A stretch of 35,162 bases of DNA from an uncultured bacterium (GCA_964389345.1 CAYMER010000070.1:1-35162), one strand, 5' to 3'. Numbered from the stretch's first letter, positions 1-35,162 are shown. Made by a program: numbers and translations. Notes: generated by a model not told the origin, from the sequence alone.

Positions 1-3000
1 TCGCTCCGGCTTCAGACTTCGCAGGGACGGATTCCGGACGGACCGTGCTTTCGGGCTTAAGCAAAGAAGCTTGGACCGCATAACTTTCCGGCGTTACTTT
101 GGGATCGTGAACAACATTTCCTTCTGTCAGGGCGCTTCCGACCATTTCCCGCGCCCAGGCCAGGACCCCCGTCAGGAACTGGTTATCCTCCGGCGGTCTC
201 ACAGCTCTGGGAAGATCGTTCGGTTTCCACTCGGCCTTCCTGAAATCTGTGATCGTGCCTTTTTCATCAATTGCAAAAAAGAATTTCCCGAACTTGGGAC
301 CGACTTTGAAAACGATATCCTCACCCTCATGCATCTTGACCCAAAGTAAAAGATCAAAGGTCACCTGCTTAACAAAATCGCTTTGGGTCGCGTCATAGGT
401 GAAATGCACGAGGTGTTGCCCGAACGGCACATTCATCTCCGCGAGGATCCCCGATTGAGCCTCGTCTTCAACAACCCCGATGTTCCCGACCACATGGATC
501 TGCCGAGTTTCCGAACGGGCGTTTTGGATTCCATCGAGAAATTTGCGGGCGCGGAAAAAACTTTGACTTCCCTTGCGGCCGCCGGAAACAAGGTCCCCGG
601 CAAGAAAAACTTTCGCCATCTTCCGGACGCCGGCATCCGGAGAAGAAACCTCAACGGCGCGCAGTGCGTCCCGCACAGCTTCCGGTTCCATGGTTTTCAC
701 CCGAAGTGCCGAACGGGCAGGAGTTGTTTTTTTCTTAAGCAACAAAAGCTGGACGTGGTCGCCGTCACCGCCGAACGGAATACGCAGGGTCCAGCCCTGA
801 AGCAGGTCGTCGCGTTCTCCGTAATCGATCCCCGCCAAAAGATCCTGCACCCGATACGCGGTCCCCGGTTCAATGATCTGCTCAAGACCGGCCGAGACCT
901 GGGTCGATACTTTTCCGTCGCCCGCCGCGACTTCACGGCTGGCGGCATCGAGCTGGATCGCAGCCACAACGACATCTCCTGAAGCATTTTTTGAGGCCAA
1001 AACAAGCGAGCTTTTATGCGAAGAATCCAACACGTAAAAATGATGTTTCCCGGCCCGGGGCGCATCTTCTCCCAAAGCAGTTTGGATATTCGCCAGGGCG
1101 TGACTAAGCCTTGAATGGAACGAAGGATCCCAGGCGGAAACCCGCGGCGTATTCAACAGATCGGGTCTGAAAAGACCGATGAGCGTCATCGTAGGTCTTA
1201 TTTTATCCCCAAAAAAATCAGCGGCTTCCTTGGGATCATCGCTTGCCAGGATCTCCAGCTGCTCGAAAAGATGGTTCGATGTAGGCGCCCCTTCCGGAGA
1301 CTCATAGCCGGTTCTTGCCTGGCGGATCAAATGCCTGAGAGAAGACGCGTCCTGCTGTTCTTGGAGACGGACGGGTTCCAGGAGGCTGTTCGAAAGCAAC
1401 GAATACGGAACCGGCTGCAGCTCAAGGATCTCAAGACCCAGAGGCATGGGAACGCCGATCCCCAGCACGGTCACGGGATTTTCTTTTGCATGGATCCTGT
1501 GATTTTTTCCGAGTTTGGGTTCCCTCACCTGGACGAACCGCACATCGGGCGCTCCCTCCACCAGCAGATTAAAAGCGGCGGCATCGATAAGGACCTGGGT
1601 GCGCGCCTTGTAACCTGTAAAACTCTGTTTTTCTTCACGTTGAACGGGGGCCCCAAGATTGAGATCCACCAGCACGGGCTTTCTGCCCTTGGCTGCGAAG
1701 ATAAAAGACTGGATCTTTTGATCATGGGTCCTGAGAGAATGCGCATTCGAATGTCCCTCAAGATAGCGAGAAATGTATTCGGCCCACGGTTGATAAGTTT
1801 CCCCGGTGCCCTGCGTTAATTCGTCTCTCAAGGCTTTTGCCTGCTCCGGATCCGCTTTCACATAGCGCTCGAACCAATTCCCTGCCATGCGCACCAAAAG
1901 CATTTCTGTAAGGTCCATGGCCTGTAAACTGAGAACTATTTTTTGTTTTTCATCGGAGTCGGCCGTTTCCCTAGCCATTTGTTCGATCCTCTTTCTTAAA
2001 GGATCCACTCCCGGAGACATGCCCTGGAGACTCGCCAGGATATATTTAAAAACGTCTCCCTGATTAACATGATGTTTCAAACTGTCCAGGGCATCCATCC
2101 CTCGCGTCGCCTCTGGGTTTTTCGGATCAGACCGCTGCCAGGTTTTGATCTCACGGAAAGATTTGAACATGCCGAAAAGCCCCATCCCTCTTGCGTAATG
2201 CGTCCTTCCGTCCCGCATCCCCTGCCAAACGAAATCAGCGGCTTTCATGGGCGCGGCATAATCCGAAGACTGGAAATGGAGCTGGCGGAACAACGCTTCG
2301 CTCTTTTCCTCATCCTCAAGTGTCTGTTCGAGCAAATAAGCGTGGGCCATGGCCTGGCCGGTCACCATGTCCACTTTCCAGGAAGCCGCTACGGATTGAT
2401 ACATGCGTTCGCGCCGTGTTTTGGGATCAGAACGCAGCGTCTTGATCTTTTGCAGGGCTTCCACAAGACTTACCACGGACGGACGCCGCCCGCCGCCCTC
2501 CTGAGTGCTCCGCTCATTGTCATCGTACCAGACAGGAATTCCGTTCAAAACCTCCCACTCACCGCGCTTGACACGCTCCCGCATGATGTCATGAGTAATG
2601 ACCGTTTTGTTCGGCTCGCCTTTGTCGTTCAAAACCCGGATGATTTCACCGGTCCGGATATCGCGAATGACCCAGACCTCGGGATTCGCCCCGCCGAAAA
2701 CGCCCATGACCTCGCCGCCGTTCGTTTCATTCTTTTCCATGCTGGTGGCCGAAGCTTCCAGGTCCTCATCGGAAAGCATCATGCCTCCCTCCGTTCCGCG
2801 GAAAATGATCTGGGCTTCATAATACGTGTAATCTTCCAGCGTCCCGATGCGATCCTCCAAGCCGAGCAGTTCGGTCAGGAAGCGGATATAAAGGAAACGT
2901 TCATGGGCGTCTTTCAGGTTAAAAGTCCGGCCGCCGATCAGCAGCCGGCCGATCGTTCTCCTGAGTTCCTCGATCGAGCGCTGATCCTTTAACCGGCTGC

Positions 3001-6000
3001 GGAGCACCTCGAATTCATTTTTGTAGCGTTCCTCGTTCTTGTCGATGCCGTCCTTGTAAGCTTTCCAGAATCCGAAGAGCGAAATGAAAGGCCTCCAGGG
3101 CTCATCCTTATCATCATAATTCTTTTTCTCCCAGGGAACATGGACCCCCGCCTCGGCGCCTGCTTTCGTCACGACCTCTTTCAATTCCTGTTCATATTTG
3201 TCCGGTCCTTTATAATCGACCTGGCGACGGACATTGGCAACGACCGGATCGTTAAGAAGCAGATCGCGGACCTGAGAAAATTCCGAATCGAGCCTGGTCC
3301 AATCTTCCGGCCGGTTCTCCTGGGCCGCTTTTTTGACAAGAGCCTGCATTTCTCCCAGACGAGCCAACAGCTGGTCCATGCTCATGTTGTTTTGTTGTAT
3401 ATAATCCTTGAACGTGTTCCCGAGCCAGTCGCGTCTTCCCGTAAAACCGTATTTTTCCCGGAGCCAGGTCAAAAGGGTTGCCGCATCCGCGGCGCTCACC
3501 CATTCGTTCTCGGATTTAAAAATCTCGCGAAGGTCCGGATGTTGGTCCAGGATCCCAAAGAATTCGCGGTCATTGGCTTCCGCCGGAAGTCCGTACTCGG
3601 GAGCAGGCGTCGCAAGCGTTTTCTTGTGATGCTCGATGACCGCTCTCCGGTCAGGAGACTGCCAGCGCGGGAGGAAAACACCGTTCGTGCTGCGGATCTG
3701 CTGCTTGGCATCATAAAAACCGCGGACCTTGTGCCAGGCGGTTCGAAAAATGTTATTGAGGAGCGCGGGAAGATGTTCCACAAGCCCTACGCCCGAGATC
3801 AGATGAAAGATCTCCGCCGTAAAATCCGCAATGCTGATCTTACCGTCATGAACGATCGTTGAGCGAAGCCACTCGGGAAACCCGAAAAAACCGTAATAAC
3901 CTTCCCAGGCCTCAAAAAGACCGGGGCGGAAGACCGTATGATTGAGCGTGGTCCGTTTCACGCGCTTGAGATGTTTGAGAGGAAGGCTGACAAAAACTTC
4001 GTGGTCGAGAAGGATAACATTATCCGGATCCGGGTTGCCTTCAAGATGGCGGATCAGAAGTTCGCTCGCCTCGCTAAAGGCGGCCATATGGATCTCGCGC
4101 ATCCCCGTATCGTCATACACTTCATCAAAGAAAGGTTTTTCTCTTCCCTCGGCGTCAACGGTGTACCCGTCCAAATAATGTTGCGGCGACCGGTGTTTCT
4201 CATAATAGGTCTTGTAGGCCCGGAAATAGACCGTGGCCGGGGCGTTGTTGATAACCGTTTGGACCCGCAATTTGACCGGGGTCAATTCCATGGCTTTTTT
4301 GACGATCTCGCCGAAAAGGATCCTCTGTCCCTTCGCATCCAGTCCCTTGACCGGCTTGTTCTTGATGAAATTCCAGAGAGGGTGGATGCCGGTCACATTC
4401 ATCCCAATCGCGGCCCAGGCTTCGAACAGATCGGGCAAGAGAGCCCCGAGACCGCCTGTTAATGTTGTTTGCGAAATTTTGCCGGCCGTGTAAGCATCGT
4501 ACAATTCCTCTATTTTTTTCAAAACGTGCATGGGATAACCGGCCTCGAATTGCCGGCTGTAAACATGCCTCTTCGCCAGCTGAGGAGTTTTCGCTTCAGC
4601 CCAGGTCGTCCCTTCTTCCGCCCGCATCTCGGACCTCGCCGGAAGCCAGGCATCTTTTTCAATGGCAACAGCGTCGCTCGCTCGCAGTTCGGAGCGCCTT
4701 CGCAAAAGACTCATTTCCCCGGCAAGAACCGCATGCGCACTGCTAAACTTCGCGACAAGGTCACCCACGGAATCCAAAGCCCGCGGATGATTTCTGCGGA
4801 GAATGTCCTCAATGATGGCCTTCATAAGGTACAAGCGGCTATTGGGCGTGAAATGGAATACCGGCGGCGCCCCTTCTTCTTGCGTGACGAGCCCTTTCAA
4901 TTTTAGCGCCTTCACGAACATCGCGAAAAGCATGTCCTGCGGGTAGTTCGGCGGTTTCATTTTTTGATAATCAAGCAGGGCGACAAATTCATTCGGCATC
5001 AGGACAAGATTTCCACCGTGGTAATCCCACCGGCGCACCCCTTCCCCTTCCAGAACGGAGGCCACTTTTGACACGCGAACCATGACGTTAAGGACGTGAA
5101 GGAGATATTCTTTTTCGGGCAAAGACTGTATCTCTTTAAGGTGGTGCTCCCAATCCAGTCCTTCGATATAGGGATAGACGATCGTGAGGGCCTCAGAACC
5201 AGCCCAAAGAGGCATGGCCTCTCCTGTGCTGGTTTTAAAGGCTCGTACCGCTTTAAAAAGAAGCGGGTTATAGACGCGGGCCTGGACGCCGTGCCTCGCG
5301 AGGATCTCATTGGCCAGGTTCCTCGGCTCCGTCCGGTTCCCGAGCGCGGACATCAGCCTTTCGATCGCTTCCTCCTCCTGCTCCTGCTTGTCTTCATCAT
5401 AGAACCTCTTGATGACATAGATCCTGCCGGAAGGATCCCCCTTGATCGTCGCGCGGTAAAGCTTTGAGGGACTGGACGACGACTTCGAGATCTCTTCAAA
5501 AAGAACGAAGGTTACTTCGTCCTCGAAAGAGCTATGGGGCGCCTGCGGCCGCATCACAAGCATTTCGTCCATTCTCCGGTCATGCTTCTGGTCCCGGATC
5601 CTCCAGGCCGCGTGAAGATGATCGAGCACTTCGGCGCTTTGAAGCATCCACCTGTGGAACTGGCCGGGTTGCAGCTTGAAATAGATCTTGGCCGCGGTTC
5701 CCTGAATATTTTCGAGCCGGACATTCTGTCCGACATAGAATTCCTGGCCTTTTCCGCGGCCCTCCTCCGCAAAAGGGTCCCAGAGCCAGAAATCGCCGAA
5801 GGCCTCCTCGATCGTGGCGGACTTGAGGTGGGGCTGCCTTTTTAAATAAGCGTTCTGTATCTCGGGAAAGTCGTTCAGGTCCACATCCACGACCCCTTCC
5901 CGTAATTCTTCCGAATGGTTATCAATCACCAGGAAGCGATTGGTAGAACTGGTCTCCGGAGTACCGAGGAATGCTTCCACTCCCGGCCTCGAACGAACCA

Positions 6001-9000
6001 CCAGCTCTTTTTCCTTCTCAAAAACAGGACGCTTCCCCGTGGAAAGCATTTTGGAATTCACAACCTGTTCCCATTCCCCCATATCCCGCCGGATTTTCGA
6101 AGGCGCTAACACCTGAGAATCCCCGACTGTCGGACGGACAGGGGCAAGGCTTGCTCGCAGTTCGGAGCGGGATCTGACCTCCGGGACCTCCGAACGGGAA
6201 ACAAAAGAACGGACCGCGGAGTTGATGCGTTGAAGGGATTCCTCGCGCGTTGTGAGGATCTTCCTGAGTTCGCCCGCATGAACCAAGCGATCGATCCATA
6301 ACAAAAAGGCCGCGGGAACGCTCAGCACGACCGCCACTTCTCCAAATGCCCGGGTCAAAAGAACCGTCAGAGCGATGACGCCGCTCCAGTAGATCCCGTT
6401 GACTTTCAGGGAACGCCAGAGAGACGGTCTTAAACCATTCGCAAAACGCGCAAGCAGGGACAATATTCCATCCATATCCCGCTGAACCAAAAACCCGTCT
6501 AGTTCTTTACGATACTCACGAGCCTTGAAAAACCGCCCCCAAAGCTCGAGTGCGCCGTCATGGTCCAGCATCTCGAACCGGACCTCCCGGTAAAAATCCT
6601 TCCGGTCCAACTCACCTTCCGCTTGTCCCCGCATCTCGGAACGATTGACGCGGTCGATGACGACGATGCGATAGAAGCGTTTTGCAGGAAGCGCGCCTCC
6701 CGTGAAACTGCCGTCGTCGATCCAGCTCGCGACCGTACCGTCCGCCACGATCCCACGCTGCACAAGCTGCCAAGAACCTGTTTTGAGATCATCCCGGTAT
6801 TCGATCTGATAAACAAAATTGGTTTGGGTCTGGAAGGTGACCTTGAAGTTCCCGTTCGTTTCTTTAAGCCCCTGGATCACCGGCGCTTCGACCGACACGA
6901 GCGCCTGCCGCCGCGTGGCATTTGGATCGATGCTTAGCGTCGTTGTTGCCGTAATTGTCGCAGTCGTATTGGTTTCGGCAAGCGCACCCGTCCCTTTTTT
7001 TGCGATCATCGCCCACCCGCCGTTATAACCAACGCTTCTGATTTGGGTGCTGCCTAAAGCTTCAATGGCCTGATAAGCTTGTTCCACACGAGGATCAGGC
7101 CACGCTGAACCACCAGGGCCTTGGATAAATCCTCCCTCTTCGGCAATCGCCATAATGACAATTTTTCCGTTAGGAATACTATTCAAATAGCTTACAAAGG
7201 TCGGAAAATAAACGTGCGGATGGCCCCATACGTCCCCTTCCATAAAATAAGTATCAAAATGTTGAAAATCTTCCATACGATTTCCAGTATAAGAATCCAG
7301 CACCGCAACATTGATCCCGCGGCCGCCTTTATCTCCGCCGGCGCGCGAAAAAACGGTTTTACCATTTAAGGTAAAGACCGCGGGGTTGCCTGAAGTCGCG
7401 GTCATCACAGGATTCGTCACCAGAGGAATGCCGTTTTGACCGTCCAAAGCAAACCTCTGCTGAAATGCCGGGACAACTAGCTTCGGTTGGCGCCCGATGT
7501 TAAACCATCCGAACCATTTTTCGTCGTTGTAGCCGTCCGGCTGACCATAATTCACTTCGGTCGAGTAGCCCTGACTTCCGGTGTAACCGCCTTTATACCA
7601 TTCATCCTGAAATTCAAAAGCAAGCGCACCGGATACGATCCCGCCCGTTCTTTCCGCGGCAAGATTGAATAATATTTCATCCCAAAGACCGATATTGAAA
7701 TCCCTCTGCATGGCCTGATCTTCGCTGCCGCCATACATCGATGTGTGTTTAAAGGAATCCGCGCCGAACTCGGTAACAAACATGGGCTTGTTCGAGATCC
7801 TCGCCCATTGGGAAAACGCATCCGTAAAACTTGCATTGCGGTAAAGTTGCAGCCCCCAAACATCGACGCTCGGGACCATATTACCGATAATCTGGTTTGA
7901 AAAATAAACCGTTCCGTCTGTTGGTTGCCATGGCGCAATATCGGGTTCCAAGTAATGATAAGTGCCCCAGGCGGATGTCGTTTCTGACATGGGGATATGC
8001 AGGTCTCCGTAAAAACTGACAACAGGGTGATTTGTATCGATCGATCTTACGATTTGGGCTGAGCGTTCCGTAAACTGAGCCGCAGCTTTTATATCGGGAA
8101 AAAACCCATAATAACGATTAATATCCCACTCATTTCCGATACCCCAGCCAAAGATCGCCGGGTGATTTTTGAAAGCGTTCACGACCACTGGGATATTGTT
8201 AGAATTGGCCGTATCGCCGTAATAAGGTGCGGTCGCCGGCAGAATTACTTTAATCCCGTACTTGTAAAACATATCAAGTACGGCCTTGGCTTCGGCATTC
8301 GTTCCCATGTCGTAATAAAGCCTTGCGACATTAACGCCATTGCTCGCCATCAGAGGAATATCATTGGTGTACCACTTAAAGAATTCTTGACGAAAAGCCG
8401 GCGCGTTAGCCGCAGGATCCGAATTTGTGGAGGCTGGGCTCCAATTCACACCTTTTATCGTGAACGCATAATTCGTCCCCAATGTTCCGTCTTGCTTGCG
8501 TTCTTTGACAAAGATCCGGCGATCGCCGGGCTGGGTATAAACTTTCGTCGGCTGGGTCGGAACGCCGAATGCGCCGGCATAAGTTTCTTGGGCCCATCCA
8601 AAAAACGCCATGACGCCCATGAGCACAAATTTCATCAGGCTTGTCCGCGCCTCGGAACGGACAGACCCTGGACGAGGAGCCGCGAAAGAAGCGTCGTTCG
8701 ATTGCAGAAAAGCATGGACCCTGGCCCGCTCCGCGCCGGTCATCTCCGGAGTCCCTTGAGCGACCCGGCTGGACGGGATCACTTGCTGGAATCTCAAGGC
8801 TTCCTTGAGTCCCGCGATCTCTTGAGTCCGGCCGGCGGTCAGTTCCGGAACGATACTGCGGATCCGCCTCTGGATCTCTTCAAGATGCTTTCCGCCGAGC
8901 CCTTCTTCGACAAGCTGTGCCGGCAAAGGGCTCACATTTCCGAACGAGGACACCGCGCCGCGCGCGCCCAGGATCAGCGCATCATCGATCGCAAATTCAT

Positions 9001-12000
9001 CGCCCGCATAAACAGTGAATCCATAATTGGAATATTCTTCCGTCAGGTGTTGCGGCCCTGAATTTTTAACGAAGGCGACCCGATCCGCGATCTCGGCGAG
9101 TTTCCGCGCAGGAATATTCTTTCCTTGGGAGAGCGCGGGATTGTTGTAAACGCCGACAGGCAAAGAAGTGGCCATTCTGCGGAAATGATCCGGGATCTGC
9201 CCGGGATCTGCCAAATAATAAAGAGGACAAACGACCAACGCATGAACACCCCGGAACGCCGAAACTTCCTGGATATTCTTCAAGGTCTGAGCTTCGGTGT
9301 TACCTGTCACGTTCGCGTGAACGATCATTTTCCCGAACGCTTCGGCAGCGGCTGCCGCAAAAAGTTCGATAGCCTGCAACCGCTGGTGATTCGTCAGTTT
9401 ATCGAACTCTCCGGTGCGACCCATGACAAAAATCGCGCGGGTCCCCTGGCTGATAAGATGAGCGACTAACTGCCTGATCCCGGTTCCATCGATCTTTCCG
9501 TCATGGGTGAGCGGCGTGATCACCGGAACGATGTTCGTCGCCGGGGTTACATCGCGCCAACTCCGCGACTCCTGCCCGGAGCGATTTTCGCTCCGTCGCG
9601 CCGTCTGAGGAACTTCGCGCCTCGCCTTCCTTTCCGGGCGGCGTTTCTCAGCGAAGATCTTTATTTCGTTTTCCCCGGACCCCGTCTCGGCCTGGATCGT
9701 AAAATGAATGTCCTCACCAAGATCGTGCATGGCTCCATAAAGAATCATGCTCTTCCTGTTCCAATCCTGCACTGTAAGCGGAGCATCGAAAGACTGCTCC
9801 TGGGCACCGGCTAGAAGAGTGATTCTGAAAAATCTTTCTTCGCCTGCGAGGCCCCTATAAACCAGGTCCCTGATACGCTCAAAAGCCGCGGAAAGGTTCC
9901 CTTCGGCCCTCACTTCAGAGCGGCTGGCGGCGACATTCAGCTCCACGCGCATTTTGCTGGGATCGATCCTTGTCGTGGGATTATCCAGGATCCCTTGCAT
10001 CAGTTCCTGGGCGCGCTCGGAAATGGCATCCTCCGTCACATGGTCCGCAGAAACGGTTTCCCCTGTCCTTAAAACCGTGAGGGCCTTCTCGAGATAGACA
10101 AAAGCAGACGGAACGGAAAGGTCGAAATTATTGTAGTTCTGAGCCGGATGGGTCACCCACCTCGGAAGTTCCTGACCTCTCATGGAAGTTAAAAATGCTT
10201 CGAGTTTTTCCGCCGTCAGGTCTCCTTTCCGGATAGCCTCAAGTTGTCTCAAGGCGGAACGGATCATCATCCCCGCCGGCACAAGATATTCCCTCCGGTC
10301 CCCGGGCGCTTTGGAAAGCTTGTAAGACTGCCGGGCCAGAGGGCTTTCGGAAGCGGCCGTAAATTCTCGGATCGCTTTGTCCATGAAACTACCGGCCTGC
10401 GCCGCCGCAGCCTCGGGCAAAGTCCTTGTTTCTTGTTCAGAGCGATTTTCGCTCCGGTGAGGCTCGTCTGCCTTCGGCAAGGCGGCAGCGCGGGCTTCGG
10501 GACGACCCTTTTCGACAAGGGGGGCCACGATCTGCGATTCCAAAACTGTATGGGTCCCGACGGCAGAAGAATCTTTTCCGTCTTTCCTCAAGAGATCTAA
10601 AGTATTGTTCAAGTCGGCGACCAAAAACCCAAGGCTTGTTTTTTCATCCAGAATTTTTTCATTCGCCAGAAAAACGCTTCCTTTGTTAGCCAGGGTCGCC
10701 GCCGTCCGGCCCGCTTCTTTTTCCAGGATCCTCGCCGTTTGTTCCGGCAAAGTCCCGGTTTGGCGCCCCTCAGCTGTAAAAACAAGAAGGGGCTCGAAAT
10801 CAAAAGAATAAACCTGCAACAACCAGCGCCGCGCGTTTGCAAGCGCTTCATCAACCTTTCCCTTTAGTTCGGATGAAAGGCCGGCGCCTGTTTCCTTGGA
10901 AACGTCACTAAAAAGTTCGGTGATTTTAACTTCAAGTTCCAGCCCTTCGGCCTCCAGATTCCTCCGGTGGTTCGCCTTCCCCGTTCCGCTTTGGGTCATC
11001 ACTCGCGGCAATGCGGCGTCGCTCATTTTAAGAATGGCTTCCTGGATCCCGGCGAGCCCTTTTTGAGGGTCGATGCCTAAAGGCGGTTCCGGCCCCCAAT
11101 GACGGCTGTCGACGAAACGGTCCGTTACATCCAGAAGCACGCGGAAGAGGAAGTATTCTGCTTCTTCCCGCGAGGACAGCGGGTGATTCTTCCCGAGCTT
11201 GTTCGTGATCTTCCGGAGTAAGGGGCCTGTTATGCCCGGATGACCCGCCACCATTTTCTGAATGTCCTTGAAAATATCGTTCTCTGCCAAAGCGATCAGA
11301 TTCGAACTCGCTTTCATAGCGTTCTGGAAAGTCTGGTAGGTCTGAAGGGACTCCTGGCCGGAAACCGTCATGTTTGAGGCGGTAAAAAAAGCCGGCCGTC
11401 CGGGCTTGTGCCAAAAGTCGAAGAGGATCCATCCGGCCCCTGCTACCGCCGCCACCCCGGCAAAAAGGGACAAGCCAACGAAAGCCCTCCGCCGGTTTTG
11501 TTGCCTTGCCTGTTCTTTCTGTAATTGTTCGCGGCGCGTGGCTGCTTGTTGCCTTACCGTTTCCGCTACTAATTCGCGTGCCGACGCCTCGGCTGCTTTC
11601 GCCTGCTCGGCTAGTTGTAATCGTTCTGCTTCTTTCGCTTCCGCAGTTCTCAATTTCCTTTGAGCATGCTCTTCCTCGCTCACGATCTTTGCCGGAAGGT
11701 CGCTCGGCACGGTCTCCCCTGTTTCCCGTTGAAGTTCTTGGAACAACTTTGTGATGACTGTTCTGTCAGGAAGGGTCAGCAGGACTTCGGGCTCCACGCG
11801 CGGGTCCGTGATACGAAGCAGGTCTCTTTGCCAGTACACCAGAACCGCTTGCGGATCTTCGGGATCTCCTTTGAAATGATTCGAAAAAAGAGGCCTGCCG
11901 TTCAACGTTGCTGTTTCGTCCGTGCCTACAGTTCCGGCCGGAAGCTGGAACTCATATTCGAGCGAGACATTGCCGCGCAGATATCCCGCGATAGTTTCCG

Positions 12001-21000: not shown

Positions 21001-24000
21001 CCGCAAAAATAACGGCCAAGACCACTTTCGCCCTGGAAGACCATGAAAGCCCAAAGGCAAGCCCGATTCCTCCCAACCAAAAAGGCATCGCGACAGCTTT
21101 GATCAACATTGTTTTTCTCGCTTCTCGCTTTTCGCCCTCTTGTCCTCTCGCCTCGGAGCGGGCGGAAAATCCGGGGTAGGAAACTTTGCCATAGAGCGCG
21201 CTCAGGACCTGCATGCAGGTCTTCGGATCTTCAAAAACAATGAGGCCGTTTTGCCGCAAACGGTCCCGGATCGCTTCCGCGTCCGGCGAAGGGTCGGTCC
21301 CCGCGAGAATGACCGGCTTGGTATGCGGCAGGCTTTCAAGGAACTGCAGAAATGCCTTGTTCCCTCCCGGTTCGGCCGCCTCCGTGTGGACCCATTGCAA
21401 ATAGCCGCTTACGATCACGTCGAATTTCGGGGAGGCCATGAGGTGTTCGATGAGCGGCCTGGCATGATCTTTCAGGGTGGAAGCCCCGGTGATATCGAAA
21501 AAATTTCTCGAATGGTCACCGAGCTTGAACTCCCTAATGAGCCCGGCAAGCTCCGGACCGGGTTCCGGCGTCACGACCGCCGGTTGATAAGCTTCGCGCA
21601 GTGCGATCACGGCATCCCTTGCGACGCCGACGTCGTGGCCGCTTGTCCAAAAATTAAAGACCCGGGCGCCGCGCTTAAGCCCCGGATGGGTATATTTCGA
21701 CAACGCTGCCGCGGAACTGAGGATCTCCACCCAGAGTTTGTCGTCGTTGGTGACGACCGCTCCCGCCTGTTCGAACACAGACGCGAAATGCTCATACTTC
21801 CCGGCCTCGGCTCCCGTATGACCGGACACGGCCGCCGCTCCTGCGTCCGTAAGGCCTTGTTTGCGGATCACCACGCACACGCCCCGCTCCCGCGCCTCGA
21901 GGATCAGTTTCTGCAACCGGCCCGCGTCCTCGAAGTCGCGCAAGCCTTCTATATAGAGCCCGACGACCTTGATCGCCGGATCGTTCTCCAAGATGTATTC
22001 CAGAAAATCCGCGGCCCCGAGGTCGAACGCGTCGCCGTTGGGAACGGCGTATTTGACCTTGCCGTACCAGCGATTGAAATAACTCACGGCCGCCGCGGTC
22101 AGCCCGCCGCTTTGCGCGATAATCGCGACGTTCCCTTCCTCGAACACGTTCATGGCCGAGGATTTTCCCGCGAACGTCGCCCTTAAGCCGGGGATGACGG
22201 GGCCCATGGTATTCGGCCCGAAAAGCGCCGCCCCTTTGGGCGCCTTGGCCGCAGCGGCCTTCAGCTGCTTCGCGAACCTCCGGTTCTTGCCCTCGAACCC
22301 GCTGGCAATGATCATTACTTTTTTTCCGGCAGCGAGAAGTTTTTCCGCTTCCAAGGTGGCCGCTTTCGGACCCATGCAGACAATATAAAGGTCCGCATCC
22401 TTCGCGGGGCCTTTATTCCACTTCGGAATGAACGGGATCGCGGGACTGCCGGTCCGCTGGAAACTTTCCCCTCTTTCCGCGCCGTTCTTGTAAACAAAAT
22501 GAAGTTCGGCCAGTCCTCCGGTCCGGAAACTTTCCATAAGATGGTCCATCATGTTCACGATCTGGCCCCTGGGACTCGCACCGATCACGGCAATACTTCT
22601 GGGATGAAGCACTTCCCTGATCCGTTCTACGTCACCGATAAACCGCAGTTCGGGTTTTTTCCCGACCTGCATCACGGCACCACGGACGTCGATGACCCCA
22701 TTCTTATCGCACAGGAGCGGGTTGATATCGACTTCCCGGATCTGGTAGCTTCCTTCCCGATCGTATTTTCGCTTGAACAGGACCAGCTGCCGGATGATGC
22801 GCCTGAGCTTTGCGATGTCCTTTTCTTCCTTGAACGGAAGCCCGAGCTTCCGGTAATTGCCATAGACAAGGTCCCGGCCGTACTTCGTGGACCGGATAAG
22901 GTCTTCGATCTTGAACGGGAACCGGTAGTCACGGAACGCGCTGTCCGAACGCCAGTTCACCAGCTTTCCGCCTTCGCCGAAACTTATGAGCCGGCCGTTA
23001 ACCGTGTCCGCCAGGCCCAGGAGCATTTCGCTGACTTCGTTTGCCTTGTCTGCCGACTCGTAGACCATCACGCCTTTTGCGCCGGGAATATCGAACATCC
23101 GGGGAAGAATGGCCGCGGCCTCCTCGCGACTGACGACATTCACGCCTTTGACGTTCCCGGAACCTTTGTCGGATTTATGGAGCTCGGACGTAATGATCTT
23201 AAGGACCAGTTCGCCGTTCCCCGGGAATTCCGGCAAAGGATCTTCCTTTTTCCACACAAACTTGAAATCCGGCACCGGGATCCCGGCGGCTTTAAAGATC
23301 TCGAAAACTTCGTGTTCATAAAGGGTCGTGCGGCTTTCCGGTTCGGCGAGCGCTTTCGCGATCAGCTCATCTGCAACCCGCACCGCCTCTGCCAGATCGG
23401 GAGATTCGCTAGCGCGCGCCTCCGAGCGGTTTAATTCTGTTTCCGCAGCTTCGGGCCCGGCTTCGAATGCTTCTATCAGATCCTCTGCTTTTTCAATGTC
23501 CTCCTCGACGCCAAGGTCCCGGATCCGCCTTAACAGCTCATCGATTTCAATCTCAATGTCCTCGATAACGTCCCGGTCCCGGTCCTCGACGGGCTCGCTC
23601 ATGTTCTCATCAAGATCCCATAAAGCTCCCTGAAGCTCTCCCAGCAAGATCCCGGAAACTTCTTTTTCCAAAGACAGCTCCTCTTCTGTTTCATTTCCTT
23701 CCGGCATTTGCTCCGCGTCGTGTCGCGCGCGCGCCGGTTGCCGGATCATGTTGTCCAGGATGACCTCGAATCCTTTTTTCCAATTCAGATCACTTGCCGC
23801 AACCCCGGACTTCAAGGCCCGCAACTCGTCTTCTGTCAGGTCCCGGAGCGCCCTTTTGACCTCTGCTTTCCAGGAAGCAAGATCCTCTTTTGTGAAGTCT
23901 CCGACGACCTTATATCCCGAAATTTTGCTAATAAAAGACAGGGGGGTTACCGCGGGTTTTTCTTGCCGGTACCTTTCCTGTGTGAAGAAAAAGGGATCCA

Positions 24001-27000
24001 GGTCGCGCAGGATATCGAACGCGATCTCAACGCGGGACCTGGGTTGGCGTGGAGCCGGCGCCTCTTTGTCGCGGGATCCGGCATCTCCTTGACCGCTCCC
24101 AAGCCCGACCTCATTCACGCGCACTGTTATGGAAGCGCTTCCGCTGATCTGAATAGAAACGGCGGCATTCGGACCTGACACAGCCACCCTGACCAGATCC
24201 CCTCTTACTTCGGAGCGAGAATCGACAACATCCTGGCGGGGCGCACGGTTTACAGCAGACGCGCGCGAGACATCAAAGGCATTGCGGACCACGTGGACCA
24301 GAACGGTGTTTGGAACCAGGAAGAATTCGGCAAGCCCGCGGTCGTTGATGGCATCGACGTCCTGCCCGGAACGGTTTTCGCTGCGGCGGGGAGTGAACAT
24401 GATGTTTTGGATGTTCCGGACAAGCTGGCTGTTGGTCATGGCTGCGATCCCGAGGACCGTGGAACCGGTCATTTGTTCCAAATTCCGCACTGCTTGCGCC
24501 GGCGTGGCGATGCGAGGCGTTTCGATATGAAGGGTTTTCCCCTGTGCACGCGTATGACCCAGCCCGTCCCGCGTCTGGATCCGCGCCCTGATCTGGAAAA
24601 GGATCCGGTCAACGGCGATCTCCAGACTGGCCAAAGCCCCTTCGACCACCGGTTCCCACGCGACCAGCTGGGCGTTGATCCGTTGGATGAACGCCGGCAC
24701 GAAGAAAAGAATGATCCCGGACCGTGTAAGGTCGGTCCCAAGTCCTTGAAGAGTTCTTAAAAGACCGCGGCGGAAATCATGTTCGTGGAAGGTGGATATC
24801 AGGAAGACGTCGTCGGGTCCCTCCGCGAGGTCGATTACCGGCGTCCCGATGCCCAGTTTGACCACCAGAAGCTTGGCGCTTTCGAGACTCGCCTGGGTGT
24901 TCGCTAGGCCCGAATCGCGCGCAAGTTCCTCGTTCAGAAGGAAGAAGAACGGATCAAAATCGACAAAAACATCAGGATTGTTCTCTGCCGGTCCTCCTTC
25001 CCACACTTGCAAAATCCCGCGGATGTGCCGGATAAACGACTGGAGGACGATCAGCCCGACCCGATCCCCTCCCGAACGCAAGAGTCCCTCGATCCGGTCA
25101 TTAAGGGCCTCGAGCTTTGCGCGAAGGGTCGCGGCATTCTCTTTTGTGATCTTTTCCCCGGATGCATGAAGAATATTCAGGATCTCTCTCGTGGCCGGAA
25201 CAAGGATCTGCTCCATTTCCCTCATTTCACTCCGGACCGGGGCGGCGGGAACTGCGCTGAGTTCGCGCGGACGGATCGGGAGCGGGGTTTTGAGGTTTTC
25301 GGCGAATTCCGTCTGCAGCATACGCTCAACGACCGGGACTGCGCGCAGAAGACCGGCCTGGATCGTTTCGAGCGGGATCTGACGGTCATAGATCCAATCA
25401 AAAACGGGCTGAAGCATTTTGGAAGAGCTCTCGGTCCGGGAGATCACTCTGCTGATCACTTCGTCCGAGATCTCTCCGTTTTTCAATGCTGAGAGAACCC
25501 GCGCCACCGCTGTTCTTTTCTGATCCGTGATCCTTTTCCTCATATTCCCGGCGGAGTAGAAGATCTCCCCGACGATTTCTTTCCCCAAGACCTCCCAAAG
25601 GACCAGCCGCTCATAGATCGTGGCATTGGTAAAAAGATACCGGCCCTTCGCCCTTCCTTCATAGGCGCCCCAAAAAGCATCCACAAGCGATTGGATCGTC
25701 TGACCTTCTTCAAGAGTTTCTGGAATCTGCGGCAAGGTGGCCCGTTGGATGCTGCTTCTCCATTGAGGGGCGACGTACATTTTATCAGGCGCCTTGGTTT
25801 GAAGTCCTTCGCGCTCAATAGTCTCGATCGCAGCCGCGGCCCGTTTCATGGTTTCCGGCCAAATCCGCCGCAAAGCCGCCCACGCGATCGCCCTCTCCCG
25901 GGCCTTATCCGCTTCTGTTTGCTGCTCTTGTTGAAGAGAAGCGGCATTCTGTTCTTCGTCGGCGAAACGGATCGGCATTCCCATTGCTTTGCTGGCGTTC
26001 AAAAAATATCTGCTGCCATTTTTTTCTCCGTCAAAACGGATCTCGATGAAAGGTTCTTTCCCATGGCCAAGGGATTCGACGACCCCGACTTTCCCGTTCC
26101 GCGTCACACGTACTCCGGGCTCGATCCCTTTGAGGTTCCGAGGCACTTCGTTCCCCACCCGGATCTCCGAACGAACGTTTGAACGTTGTAAACTCGTTAC
26201 ATAATTTTGATAAGTGGCGACAAAAGCCGCGGCTGCGGCAGCCGTGCCGGCGCCCGTCAAAAAGGAACGGGCAATGGCCTGAAAATCCGCGGCGTCGCGG
26301 ATTTTCAAGGAACGGAACCCCTCGGCCGTTCCTTTCGAGATCTTCGTGAGCATTACAATATTCTTGGCCGCGGCCTCGAGCGCGATCTGCTTCTGATGCG
26401 CTTCCTGGATGGTTTTACCGCCTGTGATCGCGCCGTGCTTGGCAAGGAGAAGCGTCGGGTGGCTTTTGGCAGCCTCTCCGACAGCCACGGCAAGAGGCGA
26501 AAGCCCGGCAGCATAGTAATCAATGGCGGCCACTTCTTTCCCGGGTTCCCCAAGGGATGCTATGAGGGCTTTCCTAAGTTCTGCGATCTGTTGATTGATG
26601 CCGCGCAAAACCGGAGACATGTCGATCATCTCCTTCATCTGCTGATCCAGAATTTCGTCGCGTTCCGCCTGTAGCGCGGCAATGCGGGTGGCGAGCGCCG
26701 TACAATAGATCGGATGCCCGTGTTCAAGCGCAAAAGCTTCGGGCCTTGCCCGGTAATAGGCCAAATGGAACATGGTTTCAACGCTGGGTCTTGCGGAATC
26801 ATTCTTCCCGGGAAAACCTTTGACCTGTTCGCCGGTCACGGCATCAACCACGACATAGTCCTCAGCCCCCATGATTTCTTTTGCTTTACCGCTCGCTTTA
26901 ATAATCATGAACCGCCGGTCGGCGGTCAGCGCGCTGATATTGCCGCCCGGCCCGTCCACCATCCTGCGCGCGGCCATATCCCGTCCCACTTCAAGCAGAT

Positions 27001-30000
27001 CTTTGCTACGATCATTGATCTGTCCGGTATATTTCAGAACCTCTTCGGCAGTCGCTTGCCTGCTCGGATAGGCCTTTGCCGTCTTGAGAGCTTCAAGATC
27101 ATGGCTCAATTCGGCTTGCCGCAACCGTTCGACGCCATCGAGCATCAGGACTTGGAAATCATCAAGCTCTCCGACCGTCCCGAGAGTTTCTTCGGCACCA
27201 AAAACTTCGACAAGGCTTCGCGTAGTCTTGCCCCTGAAACGAGCCTCGAGTTCGTTTGTGCCGATCGTGATCGTGCCTTCGAGTGTCAGGACCGTGGAAT
27301 GCTCTTTCAGCGCCGCAATGACTTCGTTTACCGCAGCGTTGCCTTGTGTTCTGACGACTGGAATATAACCTTTCTCGTTCAACACGGCGATCTGTTCAGG
27401 CACCAATCTGCGGAATGTCTTGCCTGCTTCCGCAAGCCGGGCCGCATTCGAATCCTTATACTGGAGCACCCACGAGCTCTTGTTTTTCCCCTCTCTAGGA
27501 TCGGTCTGGTAATGTCCAAGATGCATTCTGAAATTCACATCTGCGATCGATGCCGCATCCGTCTTGATAGAAGCTTGGACCATCTTGCGGTCCGCGGCAT
27601 CTATATAGAAGACCGTATCACCGTCGCGGTAGCTGACCTTCGGAATCTCAAGACCGTTCGCCTCATATTTTTCGATCAGGGCCAGCAGAAGTTTCTCGGT
27701 AAAAATCACTGCGGCGGCCGCCGGAGACATTTCCACGGCAGGCTCTTGGACTCTTTGACGGACCTCTGACCGATTGCCTGTTGCGGCGAACAAGGCGCTC
27801 CTTTCGCCCTCTTGTTTCAGAAGCCGGTTGTGCTGTCCCCAAATAGACCGCAAGGCTTTGAGCTCAAGTTGCCGCGGTCGCTCACGGCTTAACAATCCTG
27901 CTTTTCCGTCCGCGCGATGAAGGAGCTCCCCTACTTCCTCAAACGTTAAGAAGGAATCGGGGCGATAAGGGTTCCGATGCTGAAGGATGATCCGCTGATT
28001 TTCGGTCAGCGTTGTCATCTTGGGCAGGACTGCCGACTCAAAAATAGGGTCTTGTAAAAGCGCATAAACTCTTTTCTTAAAATCCAAAACATCCTGCCCG
28101 ATCCGGACTTTTCCCGTCCTTGCTTCTGAACGAGAACGGCGCGTCTGGGACGACGTCGCGGGGGTAATGACAACATTGGAGCCGTCAAAACTAAGGACGC
28201 CTGCTTTTTGAATGATGATGCGCGGACCGATCCACACGTCATCTCCTTCGGGCAATGGCTGATCCGGAACGATCGGCTCGTTTTTGGCTTCGATCTTCAA
28301 GGCAAAGACCTCGTCGCGCGAGAAGCGGAGCGCTTTCCCTCTGGCAAGAAATTCCAGCATACTGATCGCTTGCGTTCCAAGGTCTCCGGCGTTTTTTATT
28401 TCCGGAAAAACCTTTCCGTCCCGGACAACAACTTCTCCCAGTTCGATCCAGCGTTTCCCGGGGGGACTGGTGGGATCATAAAGATAGGCTGGCAAAAGGG
28501 TCTCTTCAACGCCCTGTTCTTTCGTGTATTGGGCGAAAGCCGCAGCCATCCGATCGACAACCTCAGGCAACGTTTGGATCCTTGCGGTGTACGGCCCTTC
28601 GACATTTTTGGGTAACGCCGCGAGTTTTGCGCGTCCCGGAGTTTCGCGGGCCATGGCCTCCTCCGCTCCGTCTTGCTCCGCAGTTCGATCCATATCCTCA
28701 AAAAGCGCCCGTACATTGAGAGGCCTCGCCTCCGAGCGCGCGGAACCATTGACAGGCACGCGGCGGGTCCCGGCATAGATGCGGATCTCGAGGCCGGCGT
28801 CGACCGGTGTCACCGTAGTCGTAAAATCCACGTTTTCACCAAGGACCGTCATCTCTCTCGCGAGCCTGCCCTGAATGATCTTCCAACTCGTCGCAGTGAC
28901 CGGGCCGTTAAAGACCCGGCGCTCTTGTTCATCTAGAAAAAGCACGATCCTCGTAAAAGAGTCTGTGCCGTTCGTTAAAGCCTGAATAGAATCAAAGACG
29001 GAAGCGAAACTCCCGGGATTCGCGGCAGCCTCCGTGGCCGGATCAGTCTCCGCGGGGAACCTTCGTGCCTCCGCAGGCGAATTCAGGAAGCTGCTTTTTC
29101 CGGTCCTCACCTCCGAACGGGTTCCAGCAAAAAAACGGGCGATCGCTTCGGGTGCCTGAGAAAAATCGGTGATCACAAAATAAGGTCTTTGCTCCGGAGG
29201 GAGCGCCGCGATAGCGTCCAGTTTTTTCGGATCATTCTCGCTAAAAAGGACCCCGACAACACCGGCCTCAAGCCCGTTCCGGACATCTCCGAGCGAATCC
29301 CCTTGCATCATGATCTGGCGCGGAGCAAGAGAATCCTGTTCTATAAGATGTTTCAATACAGAGGCTTTCGTCGGGAATGCCTCCGTTGCGCCGTACCGGT
29401 CCTCCGGCAGAAATAAGTCTTCGAACCCGAGTCTTGGGATCTCGGCTTTCACGCCGGCATCCGCATAACCGCTATTGACCACGAGCCGCACGCCGCGTTC
29501 TTTCAAAGCCCGGAAAAACCGCTCAGCCCCGGGGATCAAAACTCCTTCCTTTCCCAATGCCCGGATCCGTTCCAGCCTATATTGTTCCAGCTCTTGAAGC
29601 CATTCCCCGACATAGACCCGGACAGATTCTTCGACCGTGAGGGTTCTCCCTGCGGCATCTTTTTTGAGCGGCGCGCCTTGTGATAGCATCCACCTCGCAT
29701 GGTCGAAATCATTATTGGGACTTCCGAATTCATCGACATAAACCGCGACAGCCGGTTCGACCCCGGCTTTGGATTTTGCAGGATTTAAAAGGATCCGGTC
29801 GGCTAAGAATTTTTTCATGCGGTCCATCCATCCCTGTGCAGAAATAGAGAACGTGTCATCCATATCCGATGCCACGGTAGTGACTTCCAAGGACAACGGA
29901 GCGCCGGGTCGCGTCACCCGGAGCAGCCCCGGAACACCGGTCTCCTGAAAAAGATTCCTCATTGCCGCCGGAATAACGCTTTCTTTGATCTCAATCAGGC

Positions 30001-33904: not shown

Positions 33905-34108
33905 GAAATGAACGTTTGTCCTTTCGGGATTTACCTAGGGAAGACTTAATCGAAAGATAACACATATTCTTTAAATTTCAAGGGGTTGAAAAAGGATTTA
34001 TCAAGGTATGTTTAAAGCCATTTGAAGAAACCCCCTATTATGATCGGTCGCTATAAATTGCTAGAAAATGAGCTGGAAAGCATTAAGAAGAAAACTTTCT
34101 CCAAGCTA

Positions 34109-34296: not shown

Positions 34297-35130
34297 ATGC
34301 CAACAAAAAAAATCTTCACTGTTTTTCTTTTTTTGATTATCACGCTCGTTGCCGTTCCGCTTGCGCTGAGATCCGAAACGCCTGAGCCTAGCGCCGACAC
34401 TTCCCTTGCCTTATTGAATCTCGCGGTCCCCGAAGAGATCGGGAAAGTCCAGGAACGTTTTACCGGAAACAGTGCAAGGACGATCATTCAGATCCAGGAT
34501 GTTCACGCGCACGCCGCAGCCCAGCAGAACATCGCAGCTATTCTGGAGCGCCTTCGTGTGGTATTTAGCATTGAGAAGGCCGCGCTCGAAGGCGCTTGGA
34601 CCGCCACTTCCCTTCCCGAAAGTCACGCAATCCCGACCTCTCGTGAAAAACAGCTTCTCGCCGGAACCCTGCTTGAAAATGATCAGATTTCAGGGCCGGT
34701 CTATGCCGCGATCATGTCCCCGGAACCGATCACGCTGATTGGGATCGAAGACAAAACGTCCTATGAAAAGAACAGGACTCTTTTTCTGGATCATTTCAGG
34801 CAGACAAAAGAGATCGAGGAAAAACTCCGTGCTTATGGAGCGTCACTGCAAGAGTTGCAAAGATCCGCCTGGGGACCGGAGCTTTTGGCCTTCGGAAATG
34901 CCTTCGGAAAATTCCGGGACACCTCCGACCTTGGAAAATTTTTTCTGGTCCTCCTCAAAGCCGCAGAAAACCAGAGCGTGGATATTTCCGACCTTGCTCA
35001 GATCCTTTTGCTCCGGGACATTATGGCCTTGGAAAAAAGCTTCGAAAAGGAACGCCTCGAAGCGGAGGTCAAACGGGTCATTAAAAAATACAAGAACAGG
35101 CCCTGGACGATCGAAGAATTGATCCGAGGC
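34297..35130 (+). CDS. Exported or membrane-anchored paralogue of the giant ORF N-terminal module (partial, truncated by the contig end)
   Basis: The frame is open from 34177 to the window end, so it is not in the ORF track. ATG 34297 gives MPTKKIFTVFLFLIITLVAVPLAL, a signal/anchor sequence. An in-frame ATG at 34261 is the alternative start. VPEEIGKVQERF..RTIIQIQDVHAHAAAQQNIAAILERL..EKAALEGA aligns with IPAEFGKITDII..PLLIHIQEAHANYDAQKNIKAILEHL..KQIFLEGA of the giant ORF. The last 32 nt of the window are adapter and are excluded. Confidence 0.75.
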
Positions 35131-35162
35131 AGATCGGAAGAGCACACGTCTGAACTCCAGTC
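35131..35162. other. Illumina TruSeq adapter remnant (sequencing/assembly artefact)
   Basis: AGATCGGAAGAGCACACGTCTGAACTCCAGTC is the exact first 32 nt of the TruSeq read-through adapter. Confidence 0.93.

Follow-up and report, generated by a model that had tools for sequence, protein, structure and literature searches.

What kind of gene keeps one bacterial reading frame open for 33.9 kb and strings unrelated enzymes along it? The question is raised by contig CAYMER010000070.1 (assembly GCA_964389345.1) from an uncultured bacterium, the whole of which, 35,162 nucleotides, we refer to as the window. A previous reading made from the DNA alone (the sequence-only reading) had listed ten enzyme families in a single frame. 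We found that these modules lie in one giant protein, that they are set off from one another by a short peptide motif, R-S-E-x-R, and that close relatives of the protein exchange whole modules at this motif. In our interpretation, to which we assign a probability of roughly 0.45, the gene would encode an exported, cassette-built polyprotein with the junction motif as its recognition site, probably a proteolytic one.

Counting stop codons frame by frame reveals the giant open reading frame (ORF). Minus-strand frame 2 contains 25 stops in 35 kb, all of them above position 33934, versus 146–472 in the other frames, and from 33934 down to base 2 it is open for 11,311 codons. Residues are numbered such that the signal peptide begins at aa 11, at the ATG at 33904. 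All motifs quoted in the sequence-only reading are indeed found in this frame, between 33904 and 2, in the order in which it gave them. The Pfam search recovers at least 10 distinct families, each in single copy and none dominant by copy number; recognised domains cover about 35% of the protein, and the remainder has no match even at permissive thresholds. In total, at least 30 self-contained modules are strung along the chain. An ORF finder set to at least 150 aa places 18 of its 19 ORFs on the plus strand, in one frame, between 383 and 33160. These ORFs are antisense shadows of the minus-strand giant gene, and the fragmented plus-strand listing arises because, as the stop counts show, the giant frame lies on the minus strand. 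A gene caller limited to short ORFs could likewise mis-annotate this region.

The modules are separated by the R-S-E-x-R motif, which was first noticed at the starts of the relatives' copies of a GT35-like (alpha-glucan phosphorylase-like) module, where it reads SRSEMR, ARSELR, RSEVR or similar. The pattern R-[S/A]-E-[AVMITL]-R occurs 31 times in the window protein, versus 0.4 times in residue shuffles, and the broader pattern R[SA]E.R occurs 36 times. A de novo gapped-pattern search returns RSE.R as by far the most enriched pattern, with 34 copies in the window protein versus 0.31 expected and 114 in the relatives versus 1.4. In addition, the relatives' giant ORFs hold 128 copies of the motif in 60,014 aa (2.1 per 1000 aa), versus 0.16 per 1000 aa in neighbouring ORFs.

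The motif is confined to the junctions between modules. None of the 31 copies falls inside a recognised domain (P = 1.2e-6), nor does any of the 36 copies of the broader pattern, and the upstream flank of the motif is rich in Pro, Ser and Ala. Specifically, the motifs at aa 3503 and 4259 enclose an acyl-CoA synthetase (aa 3538-4248), those at aa 4951 and 5197 a histidine phosphatase, those at aa 8114 and 8426 a DapA-family domain in a unit of 312 aa, and those at aa 9767 and 11140 the GT35-like module, while an MraZ-like domain begins 10 residues past the motif at aa 5973. Self-comparison of the protein detects a single internal duplication, of two ~285-aa modules that are ~55% identical, and each of them has the motif on both sides (2901-3184 and 6115-6401). 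The motif very probably marks module junctions that are under selection.

The relatives of the giant protein show how these units move. Searches with its N-terminal 500 aa identified relatives at 30–62% identity in 19 genome loci, and all 13 of the 13 taxon-named ones are Omnitrophota/Omnitrophica metagenome-assembled genomes. Placed in the phylum through these head relatives, the giant gene is almost certainly a member of the Omnitrophota class of multi-enzyme giants. The head is common to all relatives, and the content and order of the downstream modules differ: the GT35-like module starts at aa 9767 in the window protein versus aa 1427–2971 in eight relatives, and no relative carries the HAD, aldolase and other modules of the window within its first ~3,800 aa. 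Because one ~190-aa tail, for which no function was found, closes all three complete relatives (1,736, 3,436 and 3,750 aa), the architecture of the family, as read from these sequences, is a head, variable cassettes and a tail. In relatives L005, L010 and L014 the last residues of the tail before the stop are ARSA, SRSA or AKSA, which resembles the first half of the junction motif. The end of the giant ORF of L001, near locus position 14400, falls at a run of N (masked sequence or a gap) and is an assembly artefact, no real stop.

Close relatives differ by insertion or replacement of whole modules, with breakpoints at the motif. In particular, L004 and L005, which are 78–84% identical, keep the same order as far as the motif at aa 1245/1244, after which L004 carries ~956 extra residues; L009 and L011 have common modules that are 76–94% identical, most of them starting at a motif, and unrelated stretches in between. 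Of 18 starts of homology blocks, 11 fall no more than 15 aa from a motif, versus 8.5% expected, several of these being the same junction in different relatives and hence non-independent. Furthermore, motif-bounded segments cluster as whole units, and the GT35-like module is motif-bounded on both sides in nine proteins. That module is the most widely shared cassette in the family. An exhaustive HMMER search of 1.84 billion representatives gave 68 matches, almost all within proteins of 2–7.5 thousand residues and at varied positions. Among the best 41 carriers, an independent sample, 25 have the motif, and in 9 of the 12 testable motif-bearing carriers it lies within 10 aa of the module start. 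In support of the proposal of the sequence-only reading that these are accreted genes rather than a classical multidomain protein, the modules are discrete and motif-bracketed, they are reordered in relatives with breakpoints at the motif, and one has its own signal peptide.

The sequence-only reading had also held that every named module retains its catalytic residues and is under purifying selection. Nine of its ten families are supported by profile searches, with catalytic residues intact. For the HAD, histidine phosphatase and histidine kinase modules, the catalytic residues can be read directly in the sequence. The class II aldolase module aligns to FucA at PSVE, EHGH and KHG, conserving the catalytic Glu and three Zn-binding His, and the DapA-family module aligns to 5c54 at GRTGE, PLYY, VYNNP and VKNSG, keeping the TGE, two Tyr and the Schiff-base Lys. 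The acyl-CoA synthetase (aa 3538-4248) matches ATP-grasp_5 (E = 9e-14), Succ_CoA_lig (E = 2e-25) and the NCBIfam ADP-forming acetate-CoA ligase (E = 1e-40), and is collinear with residues 19-696 of 9y43, its GHTGA lying opposite SHTGS. The PHP module matches PDB entry 3e0f (E = 1.4e-10, with HxH and DHD aligned) and the NCBIfam PHP phosphatase (E = 4e-10), and the GH-A glycosidase module aligns at GIGNE to GH158 and 6pal, with a weak Pfam match to a GH2-type TIM barrel (E = 0.0027). Because the NCBIfam hits fall far below the equivalog cut-offs, the modules so matched are, by their scores, divergent family members and not housekeeping orthologues.

A profile built from nine copies of the GT35-like module matched only alpha-glucan phosphorylases (best E = 1.7e-6), and the single-sequence search was marginal; the alignment to GT35 enzymes spans ~110 residues plus a weak second stretch, and the N-terminal end has a weak GT5 match (E = 0.014). 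The Lys that binds pyridoxal phosphate (PLP), K635 in the EASGTSNMK motif, and T60-G64 in the GGLG loop are invariant across the nine copies. The ratio of nonsynonymous to synonymous substitution rates (dN/dS), measurable only where orthologues exist, is 0.15 for this module and 0.17 for the head; for the acyl-CoA synthetase module, no orthologues were found in the metagenome collection. Purifying selection is therefore documented by dN/dS for the GT35-like module and the head, and for the other modules the claim rests on their intact catalytic residues. The tenth family, an APH-like kinase fold, was not confirmed: short motifs are recognisable by eye, the module has no Pfam, NCBIfam, PDB or sequence-database relative, and its single-sequence AlphaFold2 (AF2) model is unusable, with a predicted local distance difference test (pLDDT) score of 38.

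The modules are mostly enzymes of sugars, sugar phosphates and acyl-CoA; among them are a glycosidase, a module resembling phosphorylases, two kinds of aldolase, several phosphatases and an acyl-CoA synthetase. The set fits the carbohydrate-processing role proposed for giant proteins of Omnitrophota; no pathway could be reconstructed from it.

The giant protein carries features of an exported chain. Kyte-Doolittle hydropathy identifies the N-terminal signal peptide and about 9 hydrophobic segments, and a complete internal signal-peptide-like sequence precedes the glycosidase and ILEI domains, ~8,400 residues from the start of the chain. Cysteine is nearly absent, with 10 residues in 11,311 aa (0.09%) in the window giant and 0.13% in the relatives' giants, versus 0.61% in flanking genes. 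Near-absence of Cys is typical of exported proteins. From the signal peptide, the membrane segments and the 0.09% Cys, we infer that the chain leaves the cytoplasm or is membrane-associated. The same features indicate that the modules are probably not cytoplasmic copies of housekeeping enzymes, a correction to the sequence-only reading, which had not listed the signal peptides, the membrane segments, the junction motif or the MraZ-like, ILEI and receiver-like modules.

These observations can be assembled into a working model. The chain opens with a Sec-type signal peptide and the conserved head, continues with at least 30 self-contained modules, each flanked by R-S-E-x-R within Pro/Ser/Ala-rich linkers, and, as in the complete relatives, would finish with the conserved tail. 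The motif would be the recognition site at which processing splits the chain into separate proteins, in the manner of viral polyproteins and MARTX effector arrays, so that the giant gene would act as an operon translated as one chain. That the motif is specifically a proteolytic processing site is a tentative assignment.

The only candidate protease visible would be the invariant head or its free-standing neighbour paralogue. The head bears the signature E/D72-x-H74, then 28 residues, E102 and GGFH, which is invariant or nearly so in 43 heads (H74 in 41/41, E102 in 42/42 and the GGFH His in 40/40). The E-x-H...28...E spacing is that of RRSP and Bcr135, in the 2His/2Glu arrangement of TIKI-family enzymes (PMC6254334), a likeness that is a pattern match and not a structural superposition. 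Members of the TIKI family include site-specific endopeptidases, namely TIKI itself and RRSP, an effector of MARTX (PMC6254334). In the paralogue, a signal peptide leads into IQIQDVHAH...LEGAW, and its identity to the L001 neighbour is 78%; the same neighbour, ~720-790 aa long and likewise Cys-poor, is retained upstream of the giant gene by nearly all relatives.

Several observations weigh against this interpretation. In the 11.3 thousand residues present, there is no recognisable protease domain of the C39, S8, cysteine protease domain (CPD) or caspase-like type. The head matches PF04187 (ChaN, Tiki superfamily) weakly, with E = 0.005, or 0.003 in another member, below the gathering score; its best globular Foldseek hits, 3b55 (Bcr135), 2rad and EreC (erythromycin-esterase-like), have a probability of at most 0.23; and a profile search of the head against the PDB gave no match. 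Together with the signature, the PF04187 and Foldseek results form three weak lines that agree, and they point weakly to the TIKI superfamily; that the head is a protease is doubtful. The topology calls come from simple Kyte-Doolittle hydropathy, a crude predictor, and published work on Omnitrophota giants warns that such calls are unreliable. Some breakpoints are off-motif, for example the right edge of the L004 insertion. Nor is the motif universal: about 40% of the GT35-like-module carriers and the distant L021 lineage are without it, and no shared junction motif was found in the latter. Finally, cleavage is inferred only, and the present data fit a protease site, a docking site or a hinge alike.

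Distant lineages without RSExR show another boundary pattern, GARLA, with 8 copies versus 0.17 expected in P0037 and a position exactly at the module start in P0058, both of these being carriers of the GT35-like module. Judged by these sequences, GARLA suggests that junction codes may be lineage-specific. In its most extended form, our interpretation would describe a bacterial polyprotein: an exported operon-equivalent with an R-S-E-x-R cleavage code (GARLA and others elsewhere), whose TIKI-like head or paralogue would be the releasing endopeptidase. Since released enzymes that need ATP or CoA would be workable only inside another cell, part of the cargo would then be host-directed metabolic effectors of an episymbiont or predator. 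We regard this extended form, taken as a whole, as unlikely.

The strongest alternative is that the chain is never cut and works as a giant membrane-anchored multi-enzyme scaffold, the reading given in Nielsen & Lui 2026, in which case the motif would be a conserved linker element: a hinge, a place where a partner or chaperone docks, or a signal for secretion or quality control that recurs ahead of each module. Membrane segments occur all along the protein, as an anchored scaffold would have them, and in the published survey 94% of long Omnitrophota proteins have transmembrane helices or bear a signal peptide (Nielsen & Lui 2026, bioRxiv 10.64898/2026.06.07.730766). The Pfam scans, which found no protease domain, also speak for it, and conservation of the motif at the peptide level fits any recognition of the protein. 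However, for an uncut chain hydropathy yields an awkward topology: the synthetase, which depends on ATP and CoA, would share its side with the exported head, the transmembrane segment at aa 5476 would separate the receiver-like module from the kinase core, and the signal peptide at aa 8431 would be wrongly oriented. In addition, modules as large as complete free-standing proteins, one of which brings its own signal peptide, make more sense as released products. On this evidence, we consider an uncut scaffold somewhat unlikely.

A second alternative is that the motif has no function in the protein and is the footprint of cassette-shuffling recombination, as a DNA-level junction or microhomology site. 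The breakpoints between relatives at the motif would be expected from such a footprint, and the codon choice of the motif, with CGY for the first Arg in 26 of 31 copies and TCN for Ser in 28 of 29, is less varied than that of the gene as a whole. Against this, every synonymous codon class is used, and fifteen degenerate bases make a poor recombination site. Moreover, the motif persists at junctions within conserved, non-recombined stretches. At one orthologous junction in nine genes, R-S/A-E-x-R is kept while the codons differ and both flanks have diverged; because codons vary there while the peptide is kept, the signal lies in the peptide and not in the DNA. A purely recombinational origin of the motif is therefore improbable.

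Two further explanations can be set aside. If the gene were an in-frame operon whose modules are translated separately from internal starts, some motif copies could serve as Shine-Dalgarno (SD)-like GGAGG sites; several indeed contain GGAGG or GAGG, and two modules open with a native-looking Met shortly past the motif. Over 171 motifs, however, neither Met nor SD sequences are enriched downstream, an SD-like sequence precedes the next ATG after the motif in 10.5% of cases versus 13% for all in-frame ATGs, and the absence of stop codons over 33.9 kb would be left unexplained, so that internal starts are ruled out as a general mechanism and very improbable altogether. A chimeric assembly, or non-functional read-through across genes in decay, which the Illumina adapter at the contig end might suggest, hardly merits belief in view of 11,311 codons without a stop, intact catalytic residues, dN/dS of 0.15–0.17 where measurable, and the recurrence of the same head, GT35-like module and motif in many independent assemblies.

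The coordinates of all features are collected in Table 1, and a few of them call for comment. The MraZ-like module is also present in L004 (aa ~1250) and L014 (aa ~582), always right after a junction motif or the head; MraZ is a DNA-binding transcription factor. The marginal receiver-like module and the complete histidine-kinase core share the chain with the strong transmembrane segment at aa 5476 between them, and the junction motif at aa 5523 falls between that segment and the kinase H-box. A caspase/HetF-like protease suggested near aa 7390-7535 by NCBIfam (E = 0.004) was ruled out, as the region is without Cys.

The surroundings of the giant gene were inspected as well. The right contig end is an exact 30-base Illumina TruSeq adapter (AGATCGGAAGAGCACACGTCTGAACTCCAG, 35131-35160, plus strand), an untrimmed library or assembly artefact that truncates the neighbour gene. 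The adapter translates to RSEEH and was ruled out as the origin of the motif: it occurs once, the motif codons are mostly CGY-TCS-GAR, and every copy of the motif has Arg as its fifth residue. An Rfam scan of the window found no RNA family, and a scan for promoters and terminators between the two divergent genes did no better than shuffles. In contigs L020 and L021, from a distant lineage, the free-standing 533-aa head homologue P0011 sits between giant genes in a same-strand row. The row holds a 15,048-aa ORF, one of 1,865 aa that carries FBPase_3, and one of 5,059 aa in which malate synthase, isocitrate lyase, PGK and enolase domains occur. The 1,865-aa and 5,059-aa ORFs start with their own signal peptides, and the large ORFs of the row have no RSExR and almost no Cys (0-0.06% in L021).

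Table 1. Features of the window, with positions on the contig and residues of the giant protein
Feature	Position	Strand	Residues (aa)	Remarks
Giant ORF	2..33904	-		ATG at 33904 likely start; at least 11,301 codons, no stop; C-terminus beyond left window edge
Divergent neighbour gene start	34297..35130	+		free-standing head paralogue with own signal peptide; cut by contig end
N-terminal signal peptide	33803..33904	-	11-44	MNCLKRLQRILAGIIVVTFFVTNTLTPAPIAQA/A; Sec-type; by eye and hydropathy
Conserved head	32171..33802	-	45-588	alpha/beta core and large helical insert; TIKI/Ere/ChaN-like signature
Two-helix membrane hairpin module 1	31622..31981	-	652-771	motif-bounded
HAD phosphatase module	29261..29878	-	1353-1558	DMDDT, S, K, GDSLGD; PF00702 E 1e-6
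Class II aldolase module	26345..27013	-	2308-2530	PF00596 Aldolase_II E 1.4e-33
Unannotated module, duplication copy 1	24386..25234	-	2901-3183
ADP-forming acyl-CoA synthetase module	21191..23323	-	3538-4248	ATP-grasp and CoA-ligase, GHTGA phosphohistidine
Two-helix membrane hairpin module 2	20885..21160	-	4259-4350	motif-bounded
Receiver (CheY)-like module	19085..19531	-	4802-4950	marginal: 1zy2, E 0.055; no Pfam match
Histidine phosphatase module	18437..18952	-	4995-5166	RHG, Arg, Glu, distal His; His_Phos_1 E 1e-23
Strong transmembrane segment	17453..17509	-	5476-5494	upstream of kinase core
Histidine kinase core	16448..17302	-	5545-5829	H, N, G1, F, G2 boxes; HATPase_c E 2e-22
MraZ-like module start	15830..15988	-	5983-6035	Pfam MraZ E 7e-6; directly after RSEAR aa 5973
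Unannotated module, duplication copy 2	14735..15592	-	6115-6400
PHP phosphoesterase module	13295..14338	-	6533-6880	HVHS, DHD
Transmembrane-like segment	11423..11479	-	7486-7504
DapA/NAL-family aldolase module	8705..9532	-	8135-8410	PF00701 DHDPS E 1.5e-27
Internal signal-peptide-like segment	8588..8644	-		MKFVLMGVMAFFGWAQETYA/GA; directly after RSEAR aa 8426
Clan GH-A glycosidase module	7535..8497	-	8480-8800	GIGNE acid/base, FVTEFG nucleophile
ILEI domain	6992..7321	-	8872-8981	Pfam E 2e-15
Transmembrane segment(s)	6281..6379	-	9186-9218
Module labelled APH-like in the sequence-only reading	4697..6169	-	9256-9746	VIK, DYHGGN, LLDYQ by eye only; family unconfirmed
GT35-like (alpha-glucan phosphorylase-like) module	518..4636	-	9767-11139	GGLG loop and PLP lysine invariant
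Junction motif RAEMR	32156..32170	-	589	end of head
Junction motif RSEVR	31967..31981	-	652
Junction motif RSEIR	31607..31621	-	772
Junction motif RAETR	30836..30850	-	1029
Junction motif RSEAR	30542..30556	-	1127
Junction motif RSEVR	29105..29119	-	1606
Junction motif RSEAR	28724..28738	-	1733
Junction motif RSEAR	28118..28132	-	1935
Junction motif RSEVR	27758..27772	-	2055
Junction motif RSEIR	26159..26173	-	2588
Junction motif RSEMR	25220..25234	-	2901
Junction motif RSENR	24371..24385	-	3184
Junction motif RSEVR	24203..24217	-	3240
Junction motif RSEAR	23414..23428	-	3503	just before acyl-CoA synthetase
Junction motif RSEAR	21146..21160	-	4259	just after acyl-CoA synthetase
Junction motif RSEAR	20870..20884	-	4351
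Junction motif RSEVR	20495..20509	-	4476
Junction motif RSEAR	19517..19531	-	4802
Junction motif RSEVR	19070..19084	-	4951
Junction motif RSEQR	18332..18346	-	5197
Junction motif RSEIR	18101..18115	-	5274
Junction motif RSETR	17354..17368	-	5523
Junction motif RSEAR	16004..16018	-	5973
Junction motif RSENR	15578..15592	-	6115
Junction motif RSEVR	14720..14734	-	6401
Junction motif RSEAR	12485..12499	-	7146
Junction motif RSEAR	12236..12250	-	7229
Junction motif RSENR	10442..10456	-	7827
Junction motif RSEVR	9908..9922	-	8005
Junction motif RSENR	9581..9595	-	8114	just before DapA-family module
Junction motif RSEAR	8645..8659	-	8426	after DapA-family module, before internal signal peptide
Junction motif RSEMR	6629..6643	-	9098
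Junction motif RSELR	6155..6169	-	9256
Junction motif RSELR	4682..4696	-	9747
Junction motif RSEMR	4622..4636	-	9767	start of GT35-like module
Junction motif RSETR	503..517	-	11140	end of GT35-like module

The closest known systems are other giants of the same phylum. Multi-enzyme giant proteins have already been described for Omnitrophota: the 'Archaeovorins' are giant ORFs that hold glycosyl transferases, hydrolases and even enzymes of glycolysis (West-Roberts et al. 2023, bioRxiv 10.1101/2023.11.21.568195), and a survey of 916 long proteins defines a 'multi-enzyme metabolic cluster' class and counts HATPase_c and HAD among the common domains (Nielsen & Lui 2026, bioRxiv 10.64898/2026.06.07.730766). 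Like these, the window protein is one ORF exceeding 10,000 aa that combines many enzyme domains of unrelated kinds, HAD, HATPase_c, glycosyl-transferase-like and sugar-metabolism domains among them, and has a signal peptide, scattered transmembrane helices and mostly unannotated sequence. Unlike these, it has no C39 or S8 peptidase, HEAT or dockerin domain in the 11.3 thousand residues present, and the conserved head of its family is of another kind (TIKI/ChaN-like) and is matched by a conserved tail at the other end. A divergent SecA_DEAD domain is found in most full-length giants of West-Roberts et al. (bioRxiv 10.1101/2023.11.21.568195); Pfam found no match to it in the part of the window protein that is present, the C-terminal part of the gene lying outside the window, and none to a C39 or S8 peptidase near the N-terminus, where the TIKI/ChaN-like head is found instead.

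The giant genes of Omnitrophota are among the longest known, and the literature names their cleavage and cleavage points as an open problem: West-Roberts et al. call the cleavage points unknown (bioRxiv 10.1101/2023.11.21.568195), a 2024 survey of huge proteins agrees, and both West-Roberts 2023 and Nielsen & Lui 2026 leave the function of the giants open. Neither West-Roberts 2023 nor Nielsen & Lui 2026 mentions the R-S-E-x-R junction motif or cassette breakpoints, and within the limited literature searched we found no earlier description of the motif or of the head-cassettes-tail architecture, and no paper pairing Omnitrophota with a polyprotein. The motif gives a rule for splitting giants into natural units, which would allow structure prediction and annotation module by module, and offers a concrete, mutable site that makes processing testable. 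It is also evidence for cassette swapping between a fixed head and tail.

The MARTX toxins offer a second comparison. In MARTX (e.g. Vibrio RtxA1), conserved ends flank an array of unrelated active enzyme domains, which is strain-variable by recombination and released by cleavage (PMC6315884, PMC5218395). The window protein is likewise very large, its central mosaic of unrelated enzymes is exchanged between relatives, here with breakpoints at junction motifs, and its head bears a TIKI-like signature; among MARTX effectors, RRSP is an endopeptidase of the TIKI family (PMC6254334). In contrast, MARTX proteins reach ~5,200 aa, target eukaryotic cells and are cut by an internal CPD activated by inositol hexakisphosphate (InsP6), whereas in the window system cleavage is putative, the candidate signal is a different motif, and export would use a Sec-type signal peptide. 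Pfam found neither a repeat family of the RTX type nor a MARTX-type CPD (Peptidase_C80) in the window protein; self-comparison shows one duplicated module only, and none of the 10 Cys in 11,311 aa is in a protease-like context.

In polymorphic toxins, a short conserved peptide (VENN in CdiA, PxxxxDPxGL in Rhs) marks the point at which variable modules are exchanged, and the junction motif is alike in that it stands where variable modules swap between relatives. Each polymorphic toxin has one variable C-terminal toxin, whereas the window protein has dozens of serial junctions and non-toxin modules.

Viral polyproteins are a further system to which the giant protein can be likened. In picornaviruses, flaviviruses and potyviruses, one ORF yields many mature proteins, including membrane-spanning ones, and short linker motifs are cut by a protease of the same chain. 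The window protein is similar in having one ORF, many protein units and short conserved motifs in the linkers. It differs in being encoded by a cellular gene, in being about 3-10x longer, in having metabolic-enzyme modules, and in that its processing is presumptive. If processing is confirmed, the giant gene would be a cellular counterpart of the viral polyproteins, with tens of proteins per gene.

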